A stretch of DNA of 64,000 nucleotides from Candidatus Zixiibacteriota bacterium (GCA_020351995.1 CP070674.1:1313852-1377851), one strand, 5' to 3'. Shown: positions 1-52,849, numbered from the stretch's first letter. Numbers and translations: made by a program. Notes: a model not told the origin generated them from the letters alone.

Positions 1-523
1 CCATTAGCAGGAAAGCACTGGCAAAAGCTCCCATAATGAAGTACTTAATCCCCGCTTCGTTCGATTCCAGCGACCGGCGAGCCATGCCGGCCATGATGTA
101 AAGCGGGACCGACATTACCTCGAGTCCAAGGAAGATTACGACCAGGTCGGTGGAGTTGGCCATGACCATCATGCCGACAGTGGCAATCAGAAGCAGGCCG
201 TAGTACTCGGGACGGTTTATACCCTTCACAACCAGGTAGCGATAACCCATGAACAACGCGATTGCGGACGTCAGGATAAAAATGTGCTTGAAGGCGACGC
301 CGAAATTGTCACAACTGACCATCCCAAAAAATCCGGACTGCTGACTGCCCCACTGTCCGGCGGCGAATATAGCCGCGGCGAGAAGGCCGGCGAACGCAAT
401 AAACGGTGCGAATCTTGTCGGACCCCTGAAGAAAGGCATGACGAATATTACAAACGAGGCTACCAGGAGAGCCAATTCCGGATAGATGATACTAAGATCT
501 ATTGTTGCTGACGTAATGTCCAT
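1..523 (-). CDS. nuoN: NADH-quinone oxidoreductase subunit N, 5' part (runs off left edge)
   Basis: Not in the ORF track. Manual translation from ATG at 523: MDITSATIDLSIIYPELALL...RPEYYGLLLIATVGMMVMANSTDLVVIFLGLEVMSVPLYIMAG...SNEAGIKYFIMGAFASAFLL, typical NuoN motifs; last gene of the nuo run. Confidence 0.95.
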   Translation of the reverse strand, partial: MDITSATIDLSIIYPELALLVASFVIFVMPFFRGPTRFAPFIAFAGLLAAAIFAAGQWGSQQSGFFGMVSCDNFGVAFKHIFILTSAIALFMGYRYLVVKGINRPEYYGLLLIATVGMMVMANSTDLVVIFLGLEVMSVPLYIMAGMARRSLESNEAGIKYFIMGAFASAFLLM

Positions 524-542: not shown

Positions 543-558
543 TGCGGCGACCGCCGCA
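543..558 (-). promoter_or_regulatory. Candidate SECIS hairpin for the glutaredoxin-like selenoprotein
   Basis: Minus strand reads TGCGGC-GGTC-GCCGCA (6-bp stem, loop starting with G), beginning 16 nt after the in-frame TGA at 575-577. Confidence 0.65.
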
Positions 559-565
559 CATAACA

Positions 566-784
566 CTAAAACCCTCAACCTCCGCCGAAACCGGCCTGTA
601 CTTTGCCATTCTCGACGATAACCGGTACAATTCTCTGTCCCCCGGTAAGTTCGATGACCTTTTCTTTGGCGCCGGGAGTGGAGATGTCTATCTCCGTGAA
701 GGCTATACCCTGATCAGCGTAATGCTGCATGGCGGCTGCGCAATAAGGACATCCTTCTTTTGTATAGATGGTGACATCACTCAT
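566..784 (-). CDS. Uxx-star-type glutaredoxin-like selenoprotein (72 aa with Sec)
   Basis: ATG at 784 with GGAGGAG RBS, overlapping the nuoM stop; CPYC motif and IVPVIV cis-Pro motif; ends GGT TTC GGC GGA GGT TGA GGG TTT TAG = GFGGG-U-GF-stop, followed by a hairpin. Confidence 0.85.
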
Positions 785-2369
785 CGGACTGCTCCTCCGT
801 ATCAAATGAAAGTTCATTATTCCCAACTTCAACGGTGGTCAGTTTCTCCTCTACCCGATAATCGTCATCGAGCCTCACGGCCTCGGCCCTTTCCATCTGC
901 TCAACGACGAGGTTCACCGACGGCTTGAGAATCTCGAAGAGCGGCTTGGGGTAGACGCCGATCCAGAAAACGAGCAATACCAGCGGAACCAGTATAACCT
1001 TTTCGCGCCAGCTGAGATCAAGCAGTTTCTTATTTTCGTCGTTCGTGACCTTGCCGAAGAACACACGCTGGTACATCCAGAGCATATAGCACGCGGCAAA
1101 CACGACTCCGGTAGCACCGATTATACCATAAACGTTGTTCTTATGGAAAGCGCCGAGCAGTATAAGGAATTCTCCCACAAAGCCGTTGGTGAACGGCAAC
1201 CCAATCGATGACAGTGTTATGATCATAAAGAAGGCTGCGTAGGCGGGCATGACCCTGGCGATACCTCCAAAATCTTCTATCAGGCGGGTGTGTCGTCTCT
1301 CATATAACATACCCACCAGTAAGAACAGGCCACCGGTGGAAATGCCGTGGTTTATCATCTGAATAATTGATCCCTGTATACCCTGTGTGTTCAGGGCAAA
1401 CATGCCCAGCATGACAAAGCCCATATGTGAAACCGAAGAAAACGCGACCAGCGATTTCACGTCTCTCTGCACCATGGCCACCAGCGCGCCATATATAATA
1501 GCAATCAGCGACAGTATACATATGTAGGGCAGATAAGTGATGGTTGCATCCGGGAAGAGAGGCAGACATATGCGAATGAAACCATAGGTTCCCATTTTCA
1601 GCAGAACCCCGGCCAGGATGACGGAACCAGCCGTAGGCGCCTGCACGTGAGCGTCGGGAAGCCACGTGTGGAACGGGAACAAGGGTACTTTTATGGCAAA
1701 AGCAAGAGCGAAGGCTCCGAACAACCAGAGCTGAGCCTGATACGAAAGCGGCAACTCACCGATAATCTTGAGCATGTCAAAGGAGAACACGCCGGAATAT
1801 TTCTGGTACTCGAAGAGAATGTAGATGATACCGACCAGCATCAGCAGCGAGCCGAACATAGTAAACAGAACGAACTTGATAGCCGCGTAGATCTTTCGCG
1901 GGCCGCCCCAGAGCCCGATGATGAAATACATCGGCACCAGCATCACTTCCCAGAAGACATAGAACATAAACAGGTCAAGGGCGCAGAAGACACCGATCAT
2001 ACCGGTTTCGAGCAGCAGCATGGAGATATAATAGCCTTTGACGCCGGTCTTTATAGAGTTCCACGAAGCCAGAATAGACAGGAAAGTCAGAATCGTGGTG
2101 AGCATAATAAGAAGCAGGGAGATACCGTCCACCCCCATATGATAGCTAATTCCCAGCGAGGTTATCCACGGTATATTTACCTCCATCTGCATCCCGTTGC
2201 CCAGCGGATCAAACATGTAGTAAAGCCAGGTCGAGAACAGGAATGTCACGAAGGATATAATTAAGGCGAAACCTTTTATACTGTCATGCCTGTCCCGTGG
2301 CAGGATGGTCAGCAGTACCACACCTACGAGAGGAAAGAATGTCACCAGTGTCAAAATCTCTTTTTCCAT
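777..2369 (-). CDS. nuoM: NADH-quinone oxidoreductase subunit M
   Basis: FWEVMLVPMY, AIKVPLFPFHTWLPDAHVQAPT, LLKMGTYG motifs; operon position. Confidence 0.97.
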   Translation of the reverse strand: MEKEILTLVTFFPLVGVVLLTILPRDRHDSIKGFALIISFVTFLFSTWLYYMFDPLGNGMQMEVNIPWITSLGISYHMGVDGISLLLIMLTTILTFLSILASWNSIKTGVKGYYISMLLLETGMIGVFCALDLFMFYVFWEVMLVPMYFIIGLWGGPRKIYAAIKFVLFTMFGSLLMLVGIIYILFEYQKYSGVFSFDMLKIIGELPLSYQAQLWLFGAFALAFAIKVPLFPFHTWLPDAHVQAPTAGSVILAGVLLKMGTYGFIRICLPLFPDATITYLPYICILSLIAIIYGALVAMVQRDVKSLVAFSSVSHMGFVMLGMFALNTQGIQGSIIQMINHGISTGGLFLLVGMLYERRHTRLIEDFGGIARVMPAYAAFFMIITLSSIGLPFTNGFVGEFLILLGAFHKNNVYGIIGATGVVFAACYMLWMYQRVFFGKVTNDENKKLLDLSWREKVILVPLVLLVFWIGVYPKPLFEILKPSVNLVVEQMERAEAVRLDDDYRVEEKLTTVEVGNNELSFDTEEQSDE

Positions 2370-2372
2370 ATT

Positions 2373-4310
2373 CTAATCCATCAGCATATAGGCCACAACA
2401 AGGACTACCCCAAAGATAAAAACGGTGGCATAGGTTCGCACTCGCCCGGTCTGACCGAAACGGAGGAACTCTGAGACTTCATGGTATCGCGATGCCAGCC
2501 CATTCAGAAAGCCGTCGATAACGACTACATCGAATACTTTCCATAAGAACAGTGACAGATACACAACAGGTCGAACCACAACAGCTCCGTAGAATTCGTC
2601 TACATAGTATTTGTTCAAGAGCGTCCTGTGCAGTCCCGAAAATCTTTCTCTAAGGGAAGTGGCAAGTTCGGTGCGCTTCTTATAAAGCAAGTGCGCAAAG
2701 TAAATGGAAACCGCCACCAGGACCACCGACAGCAACATGAGAGTCCACTCCATTCCCGTATCGCCACCGCCGGCCGCCAGGACATGGGATTCGGCGGCGC
2801 CCGCACTCGTCGCCATAACCGGTTCGAGCCAGTGCTCGAATTGATTGGTGACACCGAATATATGCGGAATTCCCACGAAGCCGCCGATGACCGAGAACAC
2901 GGCCAGAATGATTAGCGGTATTGTCATAGTCTTCGGAGACTCGTGAATGTGAGTTCGGGTTTTGTCGTCCATGCGTTCCTTGCCATAGAAAGTCATAAAG
3001 ACCAGCCGGAACATATAGAATGCCGTTAGACCGGCTGTCACGAATCCCAGAATCCAGAACAGGGGGTGACCAAAGTCAGAGGAAAAGGACTTCCAGAGAA
3101 TCTCGTCCTTGGAAAAGAAGCCGGATAGAGGCGGAATTCCAGCTATAGCCAGAGTGGCAATAAACATGGTTGAAAACGTGATGGGCAGGTATTTTTTAAG
3201 GCCACCCATGTTGCGCATATCCTGCTCATCGGACATGGCGTGTATAACCGAGCCGGCACCGAGAAACAGCAGGGCTTTGAAGAAGGCATGCGTCATGAGA
3301 TGGAAAATGCCGGCCGCAAAGGAGGCCACACCACAGGCAAGAAACATATAACCGAGCTGACTTACAGTCGAATACGCCAGGACACGTTTGATGTCATTCT
3401 GAGCCAACCCAATTGTAGCGGCAAAAAAGGCCGTAACCACACCTATAATGGCAACGACCAGTAAAGCATCGGGTGTCAGAATGAACAGCGCGTTGGTTCG
3501 GGCAACCATATAGACACCAGCGGTAACCATCGTCGCGGCATGAATCAGGGCCGATACCGGGGTCGGGCCTTCCATCGCATCGGGAAGCCACACATACAGG
3601 GGAATCTGCGCGGACTTTCCCACAGCACCCACAAAAAGCAAGATGCAGGTAGTCGTTATCAGCGCTCCACCGTAAGTAAATACCTCGGGGGCCTTCTCAG
3701 AGACAGTGAGGAAATCCAGCGATCCGACAGTCCAGAAGACAAGAAACATACCGAGAAGGAATCCGAAATCTCCGATGCGGTTGACGATGAAGGCCTTTTT
3801 GCCAGCATCGGAGGCGGATTTCTTTTCGAACCAAAAACCTATCAGCAGATACGAACACAACCCGACGCCTTCCCAGCCCACGAACATAAGAAGGAAGTTG
3901 TCAGCCAGGACCAGGGTCAGCATGGCAAAAGTAAACAGATTCAGATAAGTAAAGTAGCGACCGTATCCCGGGTCATTGTGCATGTACCCAACGGAATAGA
4001 CATGAATGAGAAAACCCACCCCGCTAACGACAAGGATCATCACTGCCGACAACGGGTCAAGCAACAGGCCGATGTTGACATGGAACGAGCCTGATGGAAT
4101 CCAGGTGAAAAGAACCTGCTCAATCACTCTCAAACCCGCAGGCATGGCCTTGAGCTCGAAAAAGACCATAACGGACAGGGCAAACGAGAGAAAGACGGTC
4201 GAACAGCCAACGAAAGATATTACCGGTTTTGGGAGACGACCGATGAGCAGGCCATTGGTTATAAACCCGATCAGCGGAAAGAGTGGAATGAGAAACAGAT
4301 AGTCAGACAT
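2373..4310 (-). CDS. nuoL: NADH-quinone oxidoreductase subunit L
   Basis: GWEGVGLCSYLLIGFW, GKSAQIPLYVWLPDAMEGPTPVSALIHAATMVTAG. Confidence 0.97.
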   Translation of the reverse strand: MSDYLFLIPLFPLIGFITNGLLIGRLPKPVISFVGCSTVFLSFALSVMVFFELKAMPAGLRVIEQVLFTWIPSGSFHVNIGLLLDPLSAVMILVVSGVGFLIHVYSVGYMHNDPGYGRYFTYLNLFTFAMLTLVLADNFLLMFVGWEGVGLCSYLLIGFWFEKKSASDAGKKAFIVNRIGDFGFLLGMFLVFWTVGSLDFLTVSEKAPEVFTYGGALITTTCILLFVGAVGKSAQIPLYVWLPDAMEGPTPVSALIHAATMVTAGVYMVARTNALFILTPDALLVVAIIGVVTAFFAATIGLAQNDIKRVLAYSTVSQLGYMFLACGVASFAAGIFHLMTHAFFKALLFLGAGSVIHAMSDEQDMRNMGGLKKYLPITFSTMFIATLAIAGIPPLSGFFSKDEILWKSFSSDFGHPLFWILGFVTAGLTAFYMFRLVFMTFYGKERMDDKTRTHIHESPKTMTIPLIILAVFSVIGGFVGIPHIFGVTNQFEHWLEPVMATSAGAAESHVLAAGGGDTGMEWTLMLLSVVLVAVSIYFAHLLYKKRTELATSLRERFSGLHRTLLNKYYVDEFYGAVVVRPVVYLSLFLWKVFDVVVIDGFLNGLASRYHEVSEFLRFGQTGRVRTYATVFIFGVVLVVAYMLMD

Positions 4311-4333
4311 CGCTTTAATTATTTCCTCTCAGG

Positions 4334-4636
4334 CTACCATTTGAGCAGATCGTACCGATCGATATTAATCGTTTCTCGATTGCGGAAAAGCGTAATGACC
4401 ATCGCAAGGCCGACGGCCGCTTCCGCCGCCGCAATCGTTAGAACCAAAAACACAAAAACGTGACCATCGAGAACATTCATAGCGCGCGAGAAAGCGATCA
4501 GAGTCAAGTTGGCCGCGTTCAGCATGAGCTCAACCGACATGAAGAGGATAATTAGATTCCTGGATATAAGCACTCCGATGGTTCCGATTCCGAACAAGAC
4601 AATTGCCACTATTACATAAGCCGATAGCGTAATCAT
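4334..4636 (-). CDS. nuoK: NADH-quinone oxidoreductase subunit K
   Basis: 100 aa, MSVELMLNAANL and AAAEAAVGLA motifs. Confidence 0.97.
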   Translation of the reverse strand: MITLSAYVIVAIVLFGIGTIGVLISRNLIILFMSVELMLNAANLTLIAFSRAMNVLDGHVFVFLVLTIAAAEAAVGLAMVITLFRNRETINIDRYDLLKW

Positions 4637-5232
4637 TGTTCTCCCCCAGTTTCCTGCTCAATGTCGGGCGCCTGGGAATCCGGCGCCGAGCCGATCCTAA
4701 GTGAATCACCTCTCTGGGAATCCCTGGTCATGACCACCGCCCCGACAATCGCCGCCAGCAGGAGTATACCGGCCAGTTCAAAAGGATACACATACTTGGT
4801 GAACAGCAGGGTTGCCACTGCTTTCACCGAACCGAAATCTTCAGCCACCGTGGTCATCATACCGATAGGTGACTCGGACCGGATAAAACCAGTTTTTACG
4901 ACCGCGATGAGCTCGAAAACGAACAGAATAGAAAGTACAAACTTAGTAAAACGGCTAATCGGTTGCGAACCATGACCGAGATCCTCCGTCCCGCGCAGGT
5001 TCAACAGCATAATCACGAACAGGAAAAGGACCAGAATAGCGCCGGAATAGACGATGATCAGAATAGCCCCCAGGAAGAGGGCGCCCAACTGGACATAAAG
5101 AACAGCCTGAGCTACCAGAGACAGAATCAGATACATCACCGAGAGCACCGGGTTACGCTGAGCAATCATCATGGTGCCCCCGAAAACGGCCACGACGGCC
5201 GAAATTATGAATATCAAGGTATCAAGATTCAT
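4633..5232 (-). CDS. nuoJ: NADH-quinone oxidoreductase subunit J
   Basis: IIVYSGAILVLFLFVIMLL and YPFELAGILLLAAIVGAVV. Confidence 0.96.
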   Translation of the reverse strand: MNLDTLIFIISAVVAVFGGTMMIAQRNPVLSVMYLILSLVAQAVLYVQLGALFLGAILIIVYSGAILVLFLFVIMLLNLRGTEDLGHGSQPISRFTKFVLSILFVFELIAVVKTGFIRSESPIGMMTTVAEDFGSVKAVATLLFTKYVYPFELAGILLLAAIVGAVVMTRDSQRGDSLRIGSAPDSQAPDIEQETGGEQ

Positions 5233-5735
5233 TTCGATTTATCCGTCACTCCGTAGACTCGTCTCACTCTCCGATAGATTCGTTTCAAGGGATTATCTTT
5301 GCGCGGGTGCGGCACGAGCATATCATCTTTTCCGACGATGAACGAATTGCGGTTATCCTCCGAGAATTCGTAAACCTGTCCCAGGAAGATGGCTTCTTCA
5401 GGGCAGGCTTCTTCACAGAACCCACAAAAGATGCACCTGAGCAAATTAATCTCATACATTTTCGCTCGTCGTTCACCCTTCTCATTTTCCTCCGGTTCCA
5501 TGTAGATAGCATCAGCGGGGCAGGCGGCAGCGCACAGACCACAGCACACGCAGCGCTCGGTGCCATCGTCATACCGCTCGAGATAGTGTTTCCCCCGATA
5601 GCGAGCCGTCATGGGATTCTTCTTACGGGGATAGTCGAGCGTTATCGGCTTCTTAAACAGATGCTTGAACGTGACCACGAATCCCTTGGGCATTTTCAGA
5701 AAAATATTGCCGACCGCTTTGAGTACTTCATTCAT
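5229..5735 (-). CDS. nuoI: NADH-quinone oxidoreductase subunit I
   Basis: RYRGKH plus two 4Fe-4S motifs, CVCCGLCAAACP and CIFCGFCEEACP. Confidence 0.97.
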   Translation of the reverse strand: MNEVLKAVGNIFLKMPKGFVVTFKHLFKKPITLDYPRKKNPMTARYRGKHYLERYDDGTERCVCCGLCAAACPADAIYMEPEENEKGERRAKMYEINLLRCIFCGFCEEACPEEAIFLGQVYEFSEDNRNSFIVGKDDMLVPHPRKDNPLKRIYRRVRRVYGVTDKSK

Positions 5736-5746
5736 ATCCAGTTACC

Positions 5747-6781
5747 TCAAAACCACCCCATAACTACGAACAATCCGGTTACCATTGTATTTAAAAGCGC
5801 CAGAGGCAGCAACACTTTCCATCCAAAATTCATCAACTGGTCGTATCTGAAGCGCGGCAGCGTGCCTCTCAGCCAGATATACACGAACATAAACACGAAC
5901 ACCTTCAAGGCAAGCCAGAAGATTCCGATAAATGGTATTTCATTAACAAAGGGACCCTGCCATCCGCCGCAGAACAGGGTCGCGCCAACGGCGGACACGG
6001 CGATCATATTGGCATACTCGCCGATGAAGAACATGGCGAAGCGCATTGAGGAGTATTCGGTGTGATACCCGGCTACGAGTTCCGACTCGGCCTCGGGCAG
6101 GTCAAACGGGAGCCGATTGGTTTCCGCTATGGCGCACGTCACGTACAGGAGACATCCAAGCGGTTGCTTGAAGATAAACCAGTTGGAAAAGAACCATATT
6201 GAGTCAGACGCCTGCTGCTCGACCAGTTCCCTGAGCGAAAGTGTATTCGCTATCAGCAGAACACCGATGATGGAGAGGCCGTAGCTTACCTCATAGGAAA
6301 TCATCTGGGCCGACGACCTGATGCCGCCCATTAAAGAGTACTTGGATCCCGAAGACCATCCGGCAAGGACGATACCGTAAACTCCCAGTGAGGTTATGGC
6401 GAATACGAAGAGGATACCGATATTAAGGTCCGACAGAACCATTTTTACGTCGTAGCCAAAAACGGTATTGTCTTTTCCGAAAGGTACGACCGCAAAAGTC
6501 AGCAGCGCGGGAATGAAAGAAACCAGTGGGGCCAGGGCGAAAGTAGCTCTTTCGACCTTATCCGGCACGATATCCTCTTTGAACATGAGCTTGACCGCGT
6601 CGGCAATGGGTTGCAGAAGGCCATAGGGGCCTGCGTACGAAGGTCCGATACGGTGTTGCAGATGGCCGACTACTTTGCGCTCCATGTAGGTCGCGTAGGC
6701 ACAGCCAGTCAAAACTGCCGCCAAGACAAAGATCACTTTGATACCGGCTGCGATTATTATCTCGACCATGATATCACTCAT
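5747..6781 (-). CDS. nuoH: NADH-quinone oxidoreductase subunit H
   Basis: ERKVVGHLQHRIGP, GLLQPIADAVKL, AETNRLPFDLPEAESELVAGY. Confidence 0.97.
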   Translation of the reverse strand: MSDIMVEIIIAAGIKVIFVLAAVLTGCAYATYMERKVVGHLQHRIGPSYAGPYGLLQPIADAVKLMFKEDIVPDKVERATFALAPLVSFIPALLTFAVVPFGKDNTVFGYDVKMVLSDLNIGILFVFAITSLGVYGIVLAGWSSGSKYSLMGGIRSSAQMISYEVSYGLSIIGVLLIANTLSLRELVEQQASDSIWFFSNWFIFKQPLGCLLYVTCAIAETNRLPFDLPEAESELVAGYHTEYSSMRFAMFFIGEYANMIAVSAVGATLFCGGWQGPFVNEIPFIGIFWLALKVFVFMFVYIWLRGTLPRFRYDQLMNFGWKVLLPLALLNTMVTGLFVVMGWF

Positions 6782-9341
6782 CTACCTTCGATATCTTCAC
6801 CCTGTCCACTCGCTTCTTGCGCATCAGCAGAGAAGTAACGTTGGATGAAGAAAAGTTGCGCGGAACCAGCACGACATTGTTTTGCGTGTGCTCCGATATT
6901 CTGGCCGGCAAAATGACTTTGCCAACCTCAGACTCTACCCGCACTGAATCTCCATGAGCGATCTTAAGCTCCGACGCCAGTTGCGGCGGAATTTCAATAT
7001 AAGGTTCGCTGGCGAAGTTCGCAAGCGACGGGGCTTTCTCCGTAAGATGTCCTGAGTGATGCCAATCATCAATAATGTACAGTGGAAGATTATAGTCACC
7101 CTGACTGCCGTCAGTATCGGCCTTGACCTCGAGAAAATCATCCGGATAGGCAATCACGGAATCGAGTTCGAGCAACTGCCGCACTTCGCTGTGAATCTGC
7201 TGCTCGTTCTGGAACATCTCCGGGTCCAAAGCCTCGCCGATCAGGGAGGCAATTTCATAGCCGGGTTTGGCCTGACCGATTGGCTTAACCGCCCGAGCGG
7301 CCTTCTGGGTGCGACCTTCCAGATTCACGTAGTAGCCCTCATACTCGGCCCAACTGGCCAGGGGAAGAACCACGTCCGCCAGTTCCGTGGTCTCCGTTTC
7401 AAAGAGGTCTGCCACAACCAGGAAATCCAGCTTCTCGATGCCTTCCTTGACGAATTCACGGTCAGGGTAAAGCATCACAGGGTTGGAACCGAGTATCAGG
7501 AAGCCTTTAATTTCTTCTTTCTTTATCAGCGCCATCATAGCATCGGTATTGCGGGCCGGGGACTCGGGATATTCTCCCCACAGGCCTCTCAGCTTATCGA
7601 CGACAACAGTTCTCGGATTAGGCAACAGGCCCAGCTTTTCGGCGCCCTTGGAATTGGCATATCTTGCCAATGCCGACATCTGAGCTCTGCCTTTCAACCC
7701 GAATAATCTGTGGAGATTGATGAGAGCCGAAGCAATAAGATCCCGCTGCCGTGACCGGGTTATTATCTCGCCGGTGAAGAAAGTTATCTTCTTCCCTTCC
7801 GCGAGAGCCTCAGCTACGGTCCTCAGGCTCTCTCTATCCACTCCAGACACTTTGGCGGCTTCAGCGGAAGATTTCGTTGGCGTTTTAAGCTTGAACTTTT
7901 CTCCCCGTTTTGCATCCACAAGGTTATCTTCGATTGCGGCCAGACAGATTCCATTTACAACCGACTCTTCCGTCCCCGGCAGATAAACCAGCTCCAGCGA
8001 CGAGACATCAGCGGATTTCGTCTGGTAAGGGTTGACAGCGAATATACGGGCGTTTCCGAAATTAAACGCCTTTCTTATACGAAGGTACTCATTGGCGTGT
8101 TCTCTTATCAGATCCGAACCGAAAGTTACGATTACATCAGAGTCATCGATATCAGCAATCTTAAAGGGACGTGAACATAGTCTCATGAACGGGGATTCTG
8201 AGCTTTCCGGCAGGTATCGATAGTCACCACGGAAATCGATGTTGTTCGATTTGAAACCGACCCTCATAAGTCGTGACGCCGCGTGAAGACTGGCATTGTC
8301 GAGGCCCGGGGAAACCAGAGCTCCGACACATACTCCCCCGAGCCGTTCCTTGATTTCGCCGAACCGTTTCCCGATGATTTCAAGAGCCTCTTCCCAGGTT
8401 GCTTCAACCTGCTTGCCTTCTTTCTTCACCAGCGGTGTTGTGAGCCGGTCAGGCGAATTGACAATCTGGTAACCATAGCGAGTAACATCAGGCAGCCAGC
8501 CATCATCGATATCATCGCTGGGTCGGGAGGTCACCCGATATATTTTATTGTGATGATTCTCTTTGAAGAAGAGAGTGTTAATCCCTGAGCTGGTATAATT
8601 GCAGATCGACGGCGTAGTTGATGTCAGCCACACCCGTATTTTATAACGCCAGTCACTGTTGGTCAGGGCACCGACCGGGCAAATCTCGACCAGGTTTCCC
8701 GAGAAGGGGTTATCGACCTGTTCACCGGGGGCGGCGTTGATTTCGGCGATACTGCCCCGCTCATAAACTCCGAGGTCGTACTCACCAAAAGCCTCTTTAT
8801 TGGCACGAACACATTTGTAACACAGGATGCATCTATTACGATTCAAGATTATCTCCGGGCCAATGCGCCTGTCGTCGAAGGTCGTGGTCATTCCCTCATC
8901 GACAAAGCGATATTTCTGGAATTCGAAACGGCTGTCATCGACGCCATGAGCGAAGGTGAGATTCTGCAGATCACACTCACCGCCCTTATCGCAGGTTGGA
9001 CAGTCCAGAGGATGGTTGAGCAGAATGAATTCGATGATGGCTTTACGGCCTTGCTTGACCGTATCGGAATCCGTGTGGACCACCATTCCGTCCATTACCT
9101 CGAGCGCACACGACACCTGAAGCTTGGGCATTTTCTCGACCTCGACATAACACATGCGGCAAGCCCCAACCGGTTTCAGCTTGGGATGCCAGCAAAAAGT
9201 CGGTATGTGAACACCCAGTTCCTTAGCCGCCTGAAGGACAGTCGTTCCTTTCGGGACGGTTGTCTCTCGACCGTTGATCGTCAGAGTAACCATATTTTCG
9301 GCGGTCTCAGTCGGCATATCCTTTTTAGTAGCTTCGGCCAT
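6774..9341 (-). CDS. nuoG: NADH-quinone oxidoreductase subunit G
   Basis: 2Fe-2S motif (FCWHPKL..GACRMC), HPLDCPTCDKGGECDLQ, CILCYKC...ICPVGAL, and a long molybdopterin-oxidoreductase-like C-terminal region. Confidence 0.95.
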   Translation of the reverse strand: MAEATKKDMPTETAENMVTLTINGRETTVPKGTTVLQAAKELGVHIPTFCWHPKLKPVGACRMCYVEVEKMPKLQVSCALEVMDGMVVHTDSDTVKQGRKAIIEFILLNHPLDCPTCDKGGECDLQNLTFAHGVDDSRFEFQKYRFVDEGMTTTFDDRRIGPEIILNRNRCILCYKCVRANKEAFGEYDLGVYERGSIAEINAAPGEQVDNPFSGNLVEICPVGALTNSDWRYKIRVWLTSTTPSICNYTSSGINTLFFKENHHNKIYRVTSRPSDDIDDGWLPDVTRYGYQIVNSPDRLTTPLVKKEGKQVEATWEEALEIIGKRFGEIKERLGGVCVGALVSPGLDNASLHAASRLMRVGFKSNNIDFRGDYRYLPESSESPFMRLCSRPFKIADIDDSDVIVTFGSDLIREHANEYLRIRKAFNFGNARIFAVNPYQTKSADVSSLELVYLPGTEESVVNGICLAAIEDNLVDAKRGEKFKLKTPTKSSAEAAKVSGVDRESLRTVAEALAEGKKITFFTGEIITRSRQRDLIASALINLHRLFGLKGRAQMSALARYANSKGAEKLGLLPNPRTVVVDKLRGLWGEYPESPARNTDAMMALIKKEEIKGFLILGSNPVMLYPDREFVKEGIEKLDFLVVADLFETETTELADVVLPLASWAEYEGYYVNLEGRTQKAARAVKPIGQAKPGYEIASLIGEALDPEMFQNEQQIHSEVRQLLELDSVIAYPDDFLEVKADTDGSQGDYNLPLYIIDDWHHSGHLTEKAPSLANFASEPYIEIPPQLASELKIAHGDSVRVESEVGKVILPARISEHTQNNVVLVPRNFSSSNVTSLLMRKKRVDRVKISKVDE

Positions 9342-9346
9342 GCGTT

Positions 9347-10681
9347 CTACTTAAAGTCGAAATTCGTTTTTACCATACACTGTTTCTGGTCAATGTGATA
9401 TTGCCACTCGTCACGCCAGTGTTTGATGGCGGACTGGATGGGCATCACGGCGGCGTCACCAAGCGGGCAGATGGTCCGGCCGAGAATATTGCCGCATACA
9501 TCCTCGATTTTCTCAATATCGCCCGGTTGGCCTTCCCCGCTTTCAATTCGATTAATCATCTGTTCGAGCCAGCTCGTACCCTCACGGCATGGTGTGCACT
9601 TTCCGCACGATTCGTGTCGGAAGAAGTGAATCAGTTTCTTGATGACCCAGACGATACAGGCATCTTCGTTAAACACTATAACGGCGCCGGAACCAAGCAT
9701 GGAGCCGACCGTTTGTAACGACTCGTAATCGAGGCCAACGTCAATCATGTCGGGTGTCAAGAACGGGGTTGAAGCCCCACCGGGTATCACGCCTTTGAGC
9801 TTCTTGTCCTCAAGCATGCCATTACCGTAAGCGGGATCGTAGATGAGCTTCTTGAGGTTGAAACCCATCTCGACTTCGTAGTTTCCCGGGCGTTTGACGT
9901 GACCTGAGAGGGAGAATATTTTTGTCCCTTTGGATTTTTCAGTTCCGAGCGAACCATACCAGTCGGCTCCCCTGTTAATTATGTGCGGCACACTGGCCAG
10001 GGACTCGACATTGTTGACAATGGTCGGGCAGGCATAGAGCCCCTCTATAGCCGGAAAGGGCGGACGCATGCGCGACATACCGCGCTCACCTTCAACAGAA
10101 TTGAGCAGGGCTGTTTCCTCGCCGCAGATATATGCTCCACCACCGGTGTGAACGATCATCTCAAGGTCGTAGCCGCTGCCGTGAATGTTCTTGCCCAGAT
10201 GGCCGTGCTGGTAGGCCTCGTTCATGGCCTGTTCCATGCGCTCACGACAGTGGTTGAATTCCCCGCGTATGTAGATGAACATCAGGTGACAGCCGATAGC
10301 ATAGGCAGCGATGGCCATGCCCTCGATAACGCCGTGCGGATCACGCTCCATCAGAACACGGTCCTTGCAGGTACCCGGCTCGGATTCGTCGGCATTGCAG
10401 CAGAGGTAGCGCGGCTTGGGGGATGCCTTAGGCACAAATCCCCATTTCATGCCGGTTGGGAACCCGGCGCCACCGCGGCCCCTCAGACCCGATTTCTTGA
10501 CTTCTTCGGTTACCTGATCAGCGGTCATGCCGTTGAGCACTTTTTTCCAGGCTTTGTATCCGCCGTGAGCTTGATAAGTACCGATCTCGTGCTGCTTGGG
10601 GTCTTCCACATACTTAAACAGATGCAGGTCTTTATGGCTGGCCACCTCGGCGGCGTTTGTTATGACCGGTGAATAAAACAT
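9347..10681 (-). CDS. nuoF: NADH-quinone oxidoreductase subunit F
   Basis: GLRGRGGAGFPTG, NADESEPG, GAYICGEETAL, ESCGKCTPCREG. Confidence 0.97.
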   Translation of the reverse strand: MFYSPVITNAAEVASHKDLHLFKYVEDPKQHEIGTYQAHGGYKAWKKVLNGMTADQVTEEVKKSGLRGRGGAGFPTGMKWGFVPKASPKPRYLCCNADESEPGTCKDRVLMERDPHGVIEGMAIAAYAIGCHLMFIYIRGEFNHCRERMEQAMNEAYQHGHLGKNIHGSGYDLEMIVHTGGGAYICGEETALLNSVEGERGMSRMRPPFPAIEGLYACPTIVNNVESLASVPHIINRGADWYGSLGTEKSKGTKIFSLSGHVKRPGNYEVEMGFNLKKLIYDPAYGNGMLEDKKLKGVIPGGASTPFLTPDMIDVGLDYESLQTVGSMLGSGAVIVFNEDACIVWVIKKLIHFFRHESCGKCTPCREGTSWLEQMINRIESGEGQPGDIEKIEDVCGNILGRTICPLGDAAVMPIQSAIKHWRDEWQYHIDQKQCMVKTNFDFK

Positions 10682-11157
10682 CAGGCTTCCGACCTCAATG
10701 TCTCGAGTATACCGTCTACTTTCTCCCGCGTCAAATTCTCGTGGAAGTCATGATTGATTTGCATCATGGGCGCGGTCGAACACGAACCCAGACATTCCAC
10801 AGAAATAAGGGTGAACAGGTTGTCCGCGGTGGTCTCCCCTTTCTTGATTCCCAGCTTGTCCTCCAGGTACGAGATCAGAGAATCGGCTCCAAGCAAGGCG
10901 CACGAGATGTTATGGCAAACCTGGATGAGGTACTTGCCCCTCGATTTCTTGGGGAACATAGTATAGAAAGTAGCCGCCTCGGCGATTTCCACGTACGGAA
11001 CTTTGATCACTTTCGAAATCTCGTGATAAATCTCATCGTCGACATAGCCGAGTTGCCGGTAAGCCACTGTCAGAGCCGGCAGGATCCCCGATTTCTTACG
11101 AGGGTATTTCGCAGTCTTTTCTTTGATTTCCTGTATTGATTCTTGCGTCAGAATCAT
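10681..11157 (-). CDS. nuoE: NADH-quinone oxidoreductase subunit E
   Basis: ATFYTMF, CHNISC and ECLGSC 2Fe-2S ligands. Confidence 0.97.
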   Translation of the reverse strand: MILTQESIQEIKEKTAKYPRKKSGILPALTVAYRQLGYVDDEIYHEISKVIKVPYVEIAEAATFYTMFPKKSRGKYLIQVCHNISCALLGADSLISYLEDKLGIKKGETTADNLFTLISVECLGSCSTAPMMQINHDFHENLTREKVDGILETLRSEA

Positions 11158-12326
11158 CTGTCAACCTCGCCCAGTACAATGTCAACCGAGCCGATGGCAC
11201 ACACAACGTCCGAAAACAGCCCACCTTCAACCAGTTTTGGCAGAGAGGCCAGGTTGATGAACGACGGCGGGCGTACCCGTACCCGGTTAGGTTTGTTGGT
11301 CCCGTCGCCGGCAATATAGAATCCAAGCTCACCTTTAGGTGCCTCAACAGCCTGATAAACGGAGCCACAGGGGGCCTTAAACCCTTCGGTAATAATCTTG
11401 AAATGGAAAATCATTGACTCCATTTTATAGAGGATGTCCTCCTTCGGCGGAAGAACAACACCTGGGATATGAGCCCGATAAGGTCCCTCGGGCATGCCAT
11501 CAATAGCCTGCTGTATTATCCGTAGCGACTGTTTGATCTCCTCAACGCGTATCAGGTAGCGGTCGTAGGCATCACCCTTTTTACCGAGCGGGATCTGGAA
11601 GTCGAAGTTTTCGTACCCGCTATAAGGATTGGCTTTGCGAACGTCATAATTGACCCCACTGCCACGAAGCATCGGACCTGACAGGGAATAATCGATAGCA
11701 TCTCCGGCCGATATAACCGCCACGTCCCTTGTTCTTCGAATAAAGATCTCATTGGCCGTGAGGAGATCTTCATAGTCTTTGACACCCTGCGGAATTTGTT
11801 TGAGGGCTTTTCTGACAAGTTTGTCAAAATCCCTGGGCAGTTCATGGGCCAGACCACCGATTCTGATATACGATGTCATCATCCTCTGGCCGCCGCAGGC
11901 TTCATAGATGTCGACGATTGATTCGCGCTCGCGGAAGGCGTAAAGAAGCATCGACATGGCCCCCAGGTCAAGAGCGTGCGTGCCGAGCCAGACGAGATGT
12001 GATTTTATGCGAGTCAGCTCCGCGAGACAAACTCGTGCCCACTTAACCTTCTCCGGAACATCAATATCCATCAGCTTTTCCACCGCGAGGCAGTAGCCGA
12101 GGTTGTTGGACATCGGAGAGAGATAATCCATGCGGTCGGTAGCCGGCAAAGCCTTATAGTAAAGCTTGCTTTCCATGGTCTTCTCGATACCGGTGTGGAG
12201 GTATCCGATGACCGGAGTGGCCTTGATCACGCGTTCACCGTCCAGCTCCAATACAACCCTGAGCACACCGTGGGTTGACGGATGCTGCGGGCCCATATTA
12301 AGGGTGACAGTCTTGCCGGCGCTCAT
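11154..12326 (-). CDS. nuoD: NADH-quinone oxidoreductase subunit D
   Basis: NMGPQHPSTHGVLR, GYLHTGIEK, C-terminal DIVLGEVDR. Confidence 0.97.
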   Translation of the reverse strand: MSAGKTVTLNMGPQHPSTHGVLRVVLELDGERVIKATPVIGYLHTGIEKTMESKLYYKALPATDRMDYLSPMSNNLGYCLAVEKLMDIDVPEKVKWARVCLAELTRIKSHLVWLGTHALDLGAMSMLLYAFRERESIVDIYEACGGQRMMTSYIRIGGLAHELPRDFDKLVRKALKQIPQGVKDYEDLLTANEIFIRRTRDVAVISAGDAIDYSLSGPMLRGSGVNYDVRKANPYSGYENFDFQIPLGKKGDAYDRYLIRVEEIKQSLRIIQQAIDGMPEGPYRAHIPGVVLPPKEDILYKMESMIFHFKIITEGFKAPCGSVYQAVEAPKGELGFYIAGDGTNKPNRVRVRPPSFINLASLPKLVEGGLFSDVVCAIGSVDIVLGEVDR

Positions 12327-12856
12327 CTGATCACCTCAGGCGGTTCGTCTTTATTCCAGCTGAAAGCGGGAACTTCCCATGTAAGGGGGAAATCCTTACG
12401 CAAGGGGTGGCCTTCGAGATCATCCGGCGTCAGAATCTTTGTCAGGTTGGGATGTCCATCAAAATGGATTCCCATGAGGTCGAACACCTCGCGTTCCAGC
12501 CAGTTGGCGCCGGCCCAGAGGCCGGTCAGAGACTGGACAGTTGGCTGCTCCTCAGGCAAAGGCACTTTAATAAAGAACCGATACCGGTTTGAGATGGAAT
12601 AAAGGTTGTATACGACCTCGAAGCGTCCGTCCTTTTCCTGCTCGTGATTCAGCCAGTCGAGAGAGGTTATGTCCGACAGGTACCTGACATCGAGCTCTCC
12701 GTCATCGAGCAAGGCCTGGCAAATGTCCAGCAAGCGGTTGGGCTTTATGTAGAAGGATTGCTGGTGTCTGAAGTTGTCTTCTTTAATTACCGCGTCGGCG
12801 AATCGCGAGTCGAAAAAAGCTCTTACCTTATCTACCATAGCCGTCGAAAGTTCCAA
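12323..12856 (-). CDS. nuoC: NADH-quinone oxidoreductase subunit C
   Basis: ANWLEREVFDLMGIHFDGHP and GHPLRKDFPL. Confidence 0.96.
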   Translation of the reverse strand: MELSTAMVDKVRAFFDSRFADAVIKEDNFRHQQSFYIKPNRLLDICQALLDDGELDVRYLSDITSLDWLNHEQEKDGRFEVVYNLYSISNRYRFFIKVPLPEEQPTVQSLTGLWAGANWLEREVFDLMGIHFDGHPNLTKILTPDDLEGHPLRKDFPLTWEVPAFSWNKDEPPEVIR

Positions 12857-12903
12857 TTTTCACAAGCTCCGATTTCAGTATTACCTTGGTTGGCGGCGCG
12901 GTT

Positions 12904-13407
12904 TTAAACAGCTTTCCGTCCCCATTCCTGGCGAGAATCTTTCAGGGATTCCTTTTCAACCTTCTCTTGTAGCTTAAGAATACCTTGCATTAGCTGTTCC
13001 GGGCGCGGAGGGCAGCCAGGAACATATATGTCAACAGGGATGATGCGGTCGACACCCTGAAGTATCGCGTAATTATTAAATATTCCACCGCAAGAGGCAC
13101 ATGCTCCCATAGCGATGACCCATTTAGGATTGGGCATCTGTTCATAAAGTGTCTTGATGACGGGGGCCATTTTCATCGAGACTCTGCCCGCCACTATCAT
13201 CAGGTCGGCCTGACGAGGGGATGGTCGCATGACTTCCATGCCGTACCGGGCCAGATCAAAATGGGCAGCGAAGGTCGAGATCATCTCGATAGCACAACAG
13301 GCCAGGCCGAAGCCCAGCGGCCACATTGAGCGCTTGCGAGCCCAGTTTACCATCTTATCCAGGGTGGTAAGTATTATTGAATCCGGAATCTTTTCTTCTA
13401 ATCCCAT
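12904..13407 (-). CDS. nuoB: NADH-quinone oxidoreductase subunit B
   Basis: [33 protein letters not shown]. Confidence 0.97.
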
Positions 13408-13754
13408 TTGAACGCTCCGCGGCCAAGCTCATAGAGATAGCCAATAAGGATGACACCGACAAAGACCGAGATAATAATGAAACCGTACAGGCCCAGATCT
13501 CGCGAGACGACAGCCCATGGATAGAGGAATATGACTTCGATATCAAAAAGGATAAATGAAATAGCGACCAGATAGAATTTAACCGGAATTGGGTCTTTGG
13601 TGGAGCCGACCGGTTCCATTCCGCACTCGTACGGGTCGTTTTTCTTGCCCATTCTGGTTCTGCGGCCGAGAATAACAGAGAGTACGGCGAAAGCGACGGC
13701 TATCACGCCAGCCAGAATTAAGAGCAATAAGATTGGGAAAAAAGTCTCAAACAC
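13398..13754 (-). CDS. nuoA: NADH-quinone oxidoreductase subunit A
   Basis: PYECG and [15 protein letters not shown]. Confidence 0.96.
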
Positions 13755-51790: not shown

Positions 51791-52849
51791 TTACTTATCT
51801 CTCCGATTATTATCGGCTTTCTTTTTCTCCCGGGCTATCTTTCTCATCACCAGTTCATGCTTATCCGTTGAGTGACCCGGGCTTACTTTGGCCTTTGGGT
51901 CAATATAATGCTTGGCGTTGTTGACGGCAATAGCCGCCTCGCCGCAGCCGATAGATATAAGCTTCAGTTTGCCCTCGTAGGTTACAATATCACCTGCTGC
52001 ATAAACGCCTTCGATGTTGGTACGCATACGTCCGTCCACTTTGATGGAATTTTTGTCGATTTCAAGACCCCAATCGGCGATTGGCCCCAGATTTGTGATA
52101 AAACCGATATTAAGGACAACCGCGTCAACTTTCAGCCTCTCCTGCTCGCCGGTTTGCGTCTGGACGATAGTACAATGTCTTACCCAGTCGTCACCCTCAA
52201 TCTGCTTCAACTCCCAGAAAGGATATTTGAGACGCACTGATGATTGTTTGACCTTGCGCACGGTGTCCTCGTGAGCGGAAAAGAAATCGTTACGATGTAT
52301 GTGCGTTATAGATTTTGCGACCGGTTCAAGCATAAGGGCATAATCAAAAGCGGAATCGCCGCCACCCACAATCAAGATATCCTTGTCTTTGAAATCATTC
52401 AGGCGACGCACGAAATAGTAAACTCCGGCCCCTTCCAGCTCTCTGACATTGGGAATATCAAGTCTTTTGGGGATGTATGCGCCAAGACCAGCACAGACTA
52501 TTACGGTTTTTGAAAGATGCTCAGCCTTCGGTGTGGTTAATCTTACCGTGCCGTCAGGTAGCTTCTCGAGGCCGATGACCTTCTCTTCGAGGCAATAAGT
52601 GTGCTCGTACTGATCTGCCTGTTGTCTCAACTGCTTGACGAGGTCCTTGGCAAGGATTTTCGGAAATCCCGCCACGTCGTAGATGTACTTCTCGGGGTAT
52701 AGAGCCATCAGACCGCCCCCGACTTCACCCAGCATATCGATGACTTTCGATCTGGTTCGTCTCAGTCCGCTGTAGTACATGCCATAAAGAGCCACCGGTC
52801 CGGCCCCGACGAAGGTAATGTCGTAAATGTCGTTGCTATGCGTGCTCAT
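51791..52849 (-). CDS. Thioredoxin-reductase-like ferredoxin-NADP+ reductase (YumC type)
   Basis: GAGPVAL, LYPEKYIYDVAGFP, VYYFV in place of CxxC, GGGDSA, C-terminal PGHST; ATG at 52849. Confidence 0.88.
   Translation of the reverse strand: MSTHSNDIYDITFVGAGPVALYGMYYSGLRRTRSKVIDMLGEVGGGLMALYPEKYIYDVAGFPKILAKDLVKQLRQQADQYEHTYCLEEKVIGLEKLPDGTVRLTTPKAEHLSKTVIVCAGLGAYIPKRLDIPNVRELEGAGVYYFVRRLNDFKDKDILIVGGGDSAFDYALMLEPVAKSITHIHRNDFFSAHEDTVRKVKQSSVRLKYPFWELKQIEGDDWVRHCTIVQTQTGEQERLKVDAVVLNIGFITNLGPIADWGLEIDKNSIKVDGRMRTNIEGVYAAGDIVTYEGKLKLISIGCGEAAIAVNNAKHYIDPKAKVSPGHSTDKHELVMRKIAREKKKADNNRRDK

Follow-up and report, generated by a model that had tools for sequence, protein, structure and literature searches.

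This locus raises the question of why a small glutaredoxin-like gene lies between nuoM and nuoN of a complex I operon and whether the in-frame TGA near its end is read as selenocysteine (Sec). The gene was found in a 64,000-nt stretch (the window) of the genome of a Candidatus Zixiibacteriota bacterium, which is assembled as a single contig of 3.61 Mb. To our knowledge, these organisms are known from metagenome-assembled genomes only.

Gene order at the nuoM-nuoN junction

The gene, referred to here as grx, occupies positions 566..784 of the window on the minus strand, as do all features of the operon described below. It starts with an ATG at 784..782 and reads MSDVTIYTKEGCPYC...VQAGFGGG up to a TGA at 577..575, which is followed by GGG (574..572), TTT (571..569) and the stop codon TAG (568..566). 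With TGA translated as U, the reading frame comprises 72 codons plus the stop, and the predicted product is MSDV..GCPYC..GFGGG-U-GF*. The codons of the CPYC active site (Cys12, Pro13, Tyr14 and Cys15) are located at 740..751; the in-frame UGA, as judged by comparison of related loci, would encode Sec70 and would be followed by Gly71 and Phe72. Between the grx stop codon and nuoN, the spacer contains a hairpin at 543..558, assigned as SECIS type from its fold and covariation, with the arms UGCGGC (558..553) and GCCGCA (548..543) enclosing the loop GGUC (552..549). The distance from the UGA to the hairpin is 16 nt.

The upstream gene, nuoM (777..2369), matched TIGR01972 with 640.3 bits (cut-off, 263.8). 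Its TGA stop at 779..777 lies within the first codons of grx, which gives an 8-nt overlap, ATGAGTGA. Downstream, nuoN begins with an ATG at 523..521, and its 5' part (1..523) runs off the start of the window; the full open reading frame (ORF) of 481 codons, taken from the genome, scored 448.6 bits against TIGR01770 (cut-off, 332.6). The genes nuoA-B-C-D-E-F-G-H-I-J-K-L are located at 2373..13754, with an NCBIfam match for each subunit. The presence of nuoE, nuoF and nuoG indicates a 14-subunit NADH:quinone oxidoreductase operon, in which grx is gene 13 of 15. This operon is complete, with nuoN as its final gene and the next gene convergent. The overlap with the nuoM end and the location within the operon indicate that grx is placed for production together with complex I. 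The initial annotation had described the CPYC ORF overlapping the nuoM stop, the TGA followed by two codons and TAG, and a hairpin about 20 nt upstream of the nuoN ATG; each of these details was found at its position on the minus strand, and the spacing between the hairpin 3' end and the ATG was measured as 19 nt.

Two further features of the window were recorded. NuoM carries an acidic C-terminal extension of about 40 residues (residues ~490-530; 777-900, minus strand), which is poorly conserved and in which the alignment consensus is undefined. A thioredoxin-reductase-like ORF at 51902-52825 (minus strand) matched TIGR01292 with 149.1 bits, below the cut-off of 343, and a trxB scoring 360.7 bits is located elsewhere in the genome.

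Reading of the UGA and the downstream hairpin

As a first check of the Sec reading, the initial annotation had proposed a search for the Sec machinery, and selA, selB, selD and tRNA-Sec were all detected above cut-off in the same genome. The selA (509 bits) and selB (335 bits) genes lie side by side. The tRNA-Sec gene scored 69.5 bits and was classified by ARAGORN as SeC with the anticodon TCA. The selD gene (371.5 bits; C1:1967464-1968384) has an in-frame TGA of its own (..VSCAG-U..). The hairpin after it is small, has a G-U loop and is comparable to that of grx, indicating that the selenophosphate synthetase is also a selenoprotein.

If the UGA were a plain stop, grx would encode an ordinary 69-residue glutaredoxin, and the hairpin would be an mRNA stability or processing element. 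Gene callers do end the protein at GGG, and the best of the 8926 matches (E <= 0.001) obtained in a profile search of 1.84 billion representative proteins were mostly 69-71 residues long. Sec decoding is usually inefficient, and a truncated form is therefore probably made as well. However, the in-frame TGA was followed by exactly two codons and a stop in all 73 loci collected from the phylum, and a tail with two residues and a stop after the Sec (or Cys) position was present in 74 of 80 loci from named genome records. The first codon after the TGA encoded Gly in 69 of the 73 loci and did so by all four synonymous codons (GGA, 38; GGT, 11; GGG, 10; GGC, 10), and the second encoded Phe (53 loci), Ile (11) or Tyr (9). 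An amino acid that is kept through synonymous codon changes is a mark of translated sequence, in this case after the UGA. The curated family model NF041212 also spans the tail.

The true stops of the 73 loci were TAA (41), TAG (18) and TGA (14). Because nuoM also ends in TGA, TGA is an ordinary stop in these genomes, and an alternative genetic code was rejected.

The tails of homologues also bear on this question. Two of the short matches (P0003 and P0004) end in ..GGG, as expected if gene callers stop at the TGA. The tails of 18 of the 150 matches listed were examined, and 10 of these 18 had a Cys tail. Tails of the Cys-x-x-stop form included ..GTCGV, ..GSCSF, ..RGCAF, ..VGCAF, ..HGCPV and ..QGCFV, with Cys at the Sec position in P0021, P0042, P0047, P0052, P0067 and P0133. 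The UGA position is therefore taken by Sec or, in some homologues, by Cys, which is difficult to reconcile with a plain stop. The pattern named in advance as evidence against a selenoprotein, a TAA or TAG directly after the GGG of homologues that lack a conserved (U/C)xx tail, was not seen among the homologues examined. A monothiol CxxS/T site was found in 7 of the 10 homologues with a Cys tail; these Cys-tail proteins (the six named above and P0056) are mostly monothiol, and the Sec forms keep CPYC.

The hairpin provides a further line of evidence. As a single sequence, its fold was unremarkable (z = -1.62), and 11 of 200 shuffled sequences folded at least as well. The evidence against chance comes from the comparison of the 73 loci. 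In the aligned regions, 91.4% of the cells of the six-pair stem were paired, compared with 72.6% after shuffling and at most 58.9% when the partner columns were slid. Changes on both sides of the stem were found in 89 cells, compared with 25.9 in shuffles, none of 500 of which reached 89, and all six stem pairs showed such changes. In the loop, one G was invariant, and the next base was T in at least 90% of the 73 sequences; GGTC (32 loci) and AGTT (14 loci) were the commonest loops. Perfect stems of 4 to 9 pairs began 6 to 17 nt past the TGA. A conserved G-U loop on a covarying stem at a SECIS-like distance argues against a plain stop, as does the lack of a T-tract after the hairpin. For the same reason, and because it was not flagged as terminator-like, a reading of the hairpin as a terminator was rejected. 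No Rfam family matched around grx at an E value of 10 or lower, and none reached the gathering score across the whole window. The sequence comparison thus identifies a conserved stem-loop with a G-U apical loop soon after the UGA, as is characteristic of bacterial selenoproteins, to which SelB is predicted to bind.

These results indicate that grx very probably encodes a real, translated selenoprotein, and termination at the UGA as the sole outcome is extremely improbable. Since gene callers routinely shorten selenoproteins with Sec near the C terminus, most Zixibacteria assemblies probably list the product as an ordinary glutaredoxin of 69 residues.

The initial annotation had also suggested that the hairpin could tie nuoN translation to the selenium supply. 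In that case, the UGA and the SECIS element, lying a short way upstream of the nuoN ribosome-binding region, would make nuoN translation dependent on selenium supply or SelB occupancy, and the small protein would be secondary. The median distance from the end of the hairpin to the nuoN start was 17 nt, with 63 of 70 loci at 31 nt or less, and SelB bound to a SECIS-like element is known to repress selAB translation in E. coli. The gap was, however, 48-244 nt in the other 7 of the 70 loci, indicating that close spacing of the hairpin and nuoN is not obligatory. Stopping at the UGA instead of the true stop moves the termination site by 9 nt only, so that the coupling to nuoN would hardly be altered. 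Strong purifying selection over the whole length of the protein and the ordinary nuoM-nuoN junction of lineages without the element also point away from a mainly regulatory function, which is very unlikely. Selenium coupling of nuoN is considered possible but minor.

Protein family, fold and proposed chemistry

The grx product matched NCBIfam NF041212, the Uxx-star family glutaredoxin-like (seleno)protein, with 110 bits (cut-off, 66) over the full profile (1-70 of 70), in agreement with its initial description as a C-terminal-Sec glutaredoxin-like protein of the Uxx-star kind. In a six-frame search of the genome, the family was detected with 102.8 bits, and grx was the sole Uxx-star gene. The Pfam glutaredoxin family PF00462 matched with 51.9 bits. 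The kind of protein is already known, since the Uxx-star family is curated and named. Like other Uxx-star proteins, the grx product has a small glutaredoxin fold, a CxxC-type site near the N terminus and Sec as the third residue from the C terminus. In contrast to the named Uxx-star families 1 to 3, it fell below their cut-offs (NF041114, 69.4 versus 72 bits; NF041211, 76.8 versus 100; NF047338, 66.3 versus 97) and appears to form a nuo-embedded clade in Zixibacteria. The product was also far below the cut-offs of the Grx3, NrdH and mycoredoxin models. NrdH-redoxins and similar small proteins, for which thioredoxin reductase is the reductant, resemble it in size (about 75 residues), CxxC site and glutaredoxin fold (TIGR02194, E = 2.7e-10; 1h75, 4hs1 and 4fiw were among the structural matches), but the TIGR02194 score of 40.3 is below the cut-off of 85.75, the gene has no ribonucleotide reductase context and NrdH lacks a Sec tail.

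An AlphaFold2 model built with the alignment of 73 relatives (pLDDT, 91.2) had a glutaredoxin fold that ends after the fourth strand. The best Foldseek matches were the glutaredoxins cGrx2 and cGrx1 of Clostridium oremlandii (4tr0, 4tr1 and 7c10), with a TM score of about 0.8 and 33-35% identity, which share the fold and the position of the active site. Other solved structures matched were the glutaredoxin domain of the Haemophilus hybrid Prx5, an Archaeoglobus glutaredoxin and E. coli Grx3. Cys12, Pro13, Cys15, the cis-proline Pro54 and Sec70 were invariant in all 73 aligned proteins, in which the mean column identity was 65%.

The grx product differs from known glutaredoxins at its C terminus. 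Classical glutathione-dependent glutaredoxins have a C-terminal helix after strand 4, with a GG-x-D-D glutathione-binding motif. This helix and its motif were absent from the sequence, which ends in GFGGGUGF, and from both predicted models, full length and cut at residue 69, which stop after the strand at 61-64 without a further helix. The site of Sec also differs: the known selenoprotein glutaredoxin carries it in an N-terminal UxxC site, as listed in a table in the available part of a 2026 review (PMC13188914), whereas the Zixibacteria protein has a CPYC site and Sec on the C-terminal tail. The same part of the review names UXX-star families 1 and 2 plus a fusion form and, on these families, mentions no complex I context (PMC13188914).

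The geometry of the tail was read from the secondary-structure strings of the two predicted models, in which Cys replaces Sec. The full-length model had short bridge segments at residues 52-53 and 70-71, and neither was present in the model cut at residue 69, indicating that in the model Sec70-Gly71 pairs with Ile52-Val53, before the cis-proline. In glutaredoxins, this site is where the Cys-Gly moiety of glutathione is bound through the backbone. The glycine-rich tail may thus fold back so that Sec70-Gly71 would pair with Ile52-Val53 in the glutathione groove. Sec would first attack an oxidised target (peroxide, sulfenic acid or mixed disulfide) and would then form a selenenylsulfide with Cys12. 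Cys15 would resolve the Se-S bond, leaving a Cys12-Cys15 disulfide to be reduced by thioredoxin reductase or a thioredoxin. The monothiol site in 7 of the 10 Cys-tail homologues fits a resolving function of the tail residue towards the first Cys of the active site. In the genome, trxB was present, whereas searches with models for gshB (TIGR01380) and E. coli-type gshA (TIGR01434) found nothing; this gshA model is narrow, and glutathione may be absent. In principle, the proposed relay resembles animal thioredoxin reductase, whose flexible Sec, part of a C-terminal Gly-Cys-Sec-Gly tail, carries redox equivalents to the buried dithiol centre of the enzyme. That enzyme, however, is an unrelated flavoenzyme, and its Sec pairs with the neighbouring Cys of the tail. 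This particular Sec-Cys-Cys chemistry is put forward tentatively and is rather doubtful in its details.

Conservation, loss and the possible link to complex I

The NF041212 family was detected above cut-off in 40 of the 41 genomes of the order, including that studied here, and, across Zixibacteria as a whole, in 191 of 285 species genomes. Of the 73 loci, 72 had nuoM upstream and 70 had nuoN downstream, and all four misses were at contig ends. An overlap of 1-13 nt between the start of grx and nuoM was present in 43 of 72 loci, and in 23 more grx began at most 13 nt after nuoM; the remaining six spacing values were outliers. Recurrence of the nuoM-grx-nuoN order, which the initial annotation had named as a point to be checked, was thus observed across most of the phylum wherever the flanks were readable.

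A second nuo operon in the genome (C1:2026571-2036574) has 11 subunits (nuoABCDHIJKLMN), lacks nuoEFG and has nuoM and nuoN adjacent, with no glutaredoxin gene between them. A second 11-subunit operon without grx was also present in all five other genomes examined, and grx was found in the nuoEFG-containing operon only. In five other Zixibacteria genomes, the second nuoM-like locus was about 46-50% identical and ran straight into nuoN.

A further 80 loci were obtained from named records, partly of the same genomes; 51 were flanked by nuo genes and 29 had no nuo gene nearby. The latter were labelled Thermoleophilia, Anaerolineae, Syntrophomonas, Thermincola, Pyrinomonadaceae and others. Some contigs with the Zixibacteria-type nuoM-grx-nuoN order were labelled Ignavibacteriales, Calditrichota or FCB group, and such labels need care. 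In a tree of the 80 short proteins, the nuo-flanked ones clustered (3 changes, compared with 23.9 when shuffled), and a single clade of these proteins was not rejected (p-AU, 0.797). In two loci labelled actinobacterial (L134:18-2498 and L141:178-2100), the Uxx-star gene directly follows a P-type ATPase (E1-E2 ATPase), one of which has two heavy-metal-associated domains. These ATPase neighbours hint, from gene context, at a metal-linked role for other Uxx-star members.

The conserved position might also be explained without a special tie to complex I. The selenoprotein could be a general cytoplasmic protein with a redox function or one in the handling of thiophilic metals. Its gene would have entered the nuoM-nuoN junction once, in an early Zixibacterium, and would have stayed because a gene that overlaps nuoM and is followed by a compact spacer is hard to move. 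The occurrence of the subfamily in many phyla with unrelated neighbours, the two loci after heavy-metal P-type ATPases and the single clade of nuo-flanked copies, which fits one insertion, are consistent with this explanation. According to the review, the Sec of UXX-star proteins may serve to bind metals or substrates as yet unknown (PMC13188914). A general role is less easily reconciled with retention at one site across a deep phylum (191 of 285 species genomes) and with a location confined to the NADH-type operon, the second operon being consistently without the gene. In addition, grx is the sole copy in its genome, and a housekeeping redox gene would more often lie elsewhere or be duplicated.

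The losses of the gene also bear on this explanation. Nine families of the phylum (f7, f8, f11, f12, f14, f16, f17, f19 and f20) had no above-cut-off NF041212 match, and most of their genomes still had a close nuoM match. Twelve loci were read, drawn from six of these families and a single genus of f15; in each, the orthologous nuoM ran directly into nuoN, with junctions of 0 to about 110 nt and no glutaredoxin ORF. This confirms that nuoM and nuoN, described at the outset as normally adjacent, are direct neighbours in lineages without grx. Within the order, five genomes had no family match, and selB was above cut-off in all five. Their nuoM-nuoN junctions were inspected (L173, G073; L174, G013; L177, G156; L175, G081; L176, G186), and remnants of grx, left by internal deletion, were found in three. 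In one, the first ten codons are fused in a different frame to the tail ..IGFGGN-TGA-GF-stop, another has the tail ..VGFGSS-TGA-GL-stop and the third has the start MIDVAIYT followed by the hairpin. The fourth genome has an 82-nt junction with a hairpin-like repeat only; in the fifth, the junction measures 56 nt and no trace of grx could be recognised. The remnants, together with the retained selB and operon, indicate a secondary loss of grx in genomes that kept both the Sec trait and the operon. This indicates that grx is useful, not essential, and is dispensable for the enzyme. Repeated loss of this kind, with the operon and selB kept, is also compatible with a selenoprotein of general function, an explanation that is possible, albeit the less probable one.

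Cysteines of NuoM and NuoN were also compared between loci with and without grx. NuoM position 395 was Cys in 82 of 124 loci with grx and in none of 12 without, and NuoN position 71 was Cys in 59 of 122 loci with grx and in none of 11 without, both comparisons being confounded by relatedness. No cysteine of either subunit cleanly tracked the presence of grx in these loci (124 and 122 with, 12 and 11 without, for NuoM and NuoN, respectively). With partial candidates only, the idea of a target Cys tracking grx was dropped.

Judged by gene order, grx is encoded within, and conserved with, the core operon, as would be expected for a complex I partner. Since it is made beside NuoM and NuoN and occurs only with the NADH-type enzyme, complex I is the candidate client. 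A functional tie to complex I, for which the evidence is this conserved gene order, is accordingly plausible in our view. Candidate roles that the protein might have at complex I are the removal of peroxide and the repair of oxidised thiols. The thiol-repair, assembly or redox-control function suggested in the initial annotation would likewise draw on conserved gene order. Thioredoxin-fold proteins that serve or sit on complex I are known from mitochondria, in which Grx2 acts on complex I thiols and NDUFA2 is a thioredoxin-fold accessory subunit. These precedents are eukaryotic, are not selenoproteins and are not encoded with the core subunits, and the likeness to the grx product lies in the shared fold.

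No report of a glutaredoxin or selenoprotein gene inside nuo, or of grx in Zixibacteria, was found in the literature; the paper of Haft and Tolstoy published in mSystems in 2025, which reportedly defines the Uxx-star families, may already describe it. The phylum-wide complex I context of grx appears to be undescribed.

Taken together, grx probably encodes a genuine 72-residue Uxx-star selenoprotein, which would be produced next to the NADH-oxidising complex I and would have a role in redox protection or repair. It is improbable, at this stage, that the protein is a dedicated complex I selenoprotein whose Sec-Gly tail replaces glutathione, so that a self-contained selenol/dithiol relay beside NuoM and NuoN guards or resets the thiols of the enzyme or removes peroxide formed at the flavin; if this holds, respiratory complex I would have its first selenoprotein partner. 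Among the contexts examined, the fixed place in the operon is the clearest lead to a physiological partner for the Uxx-star family, and complex I research gains a candidate bacterial redox accessory factor.
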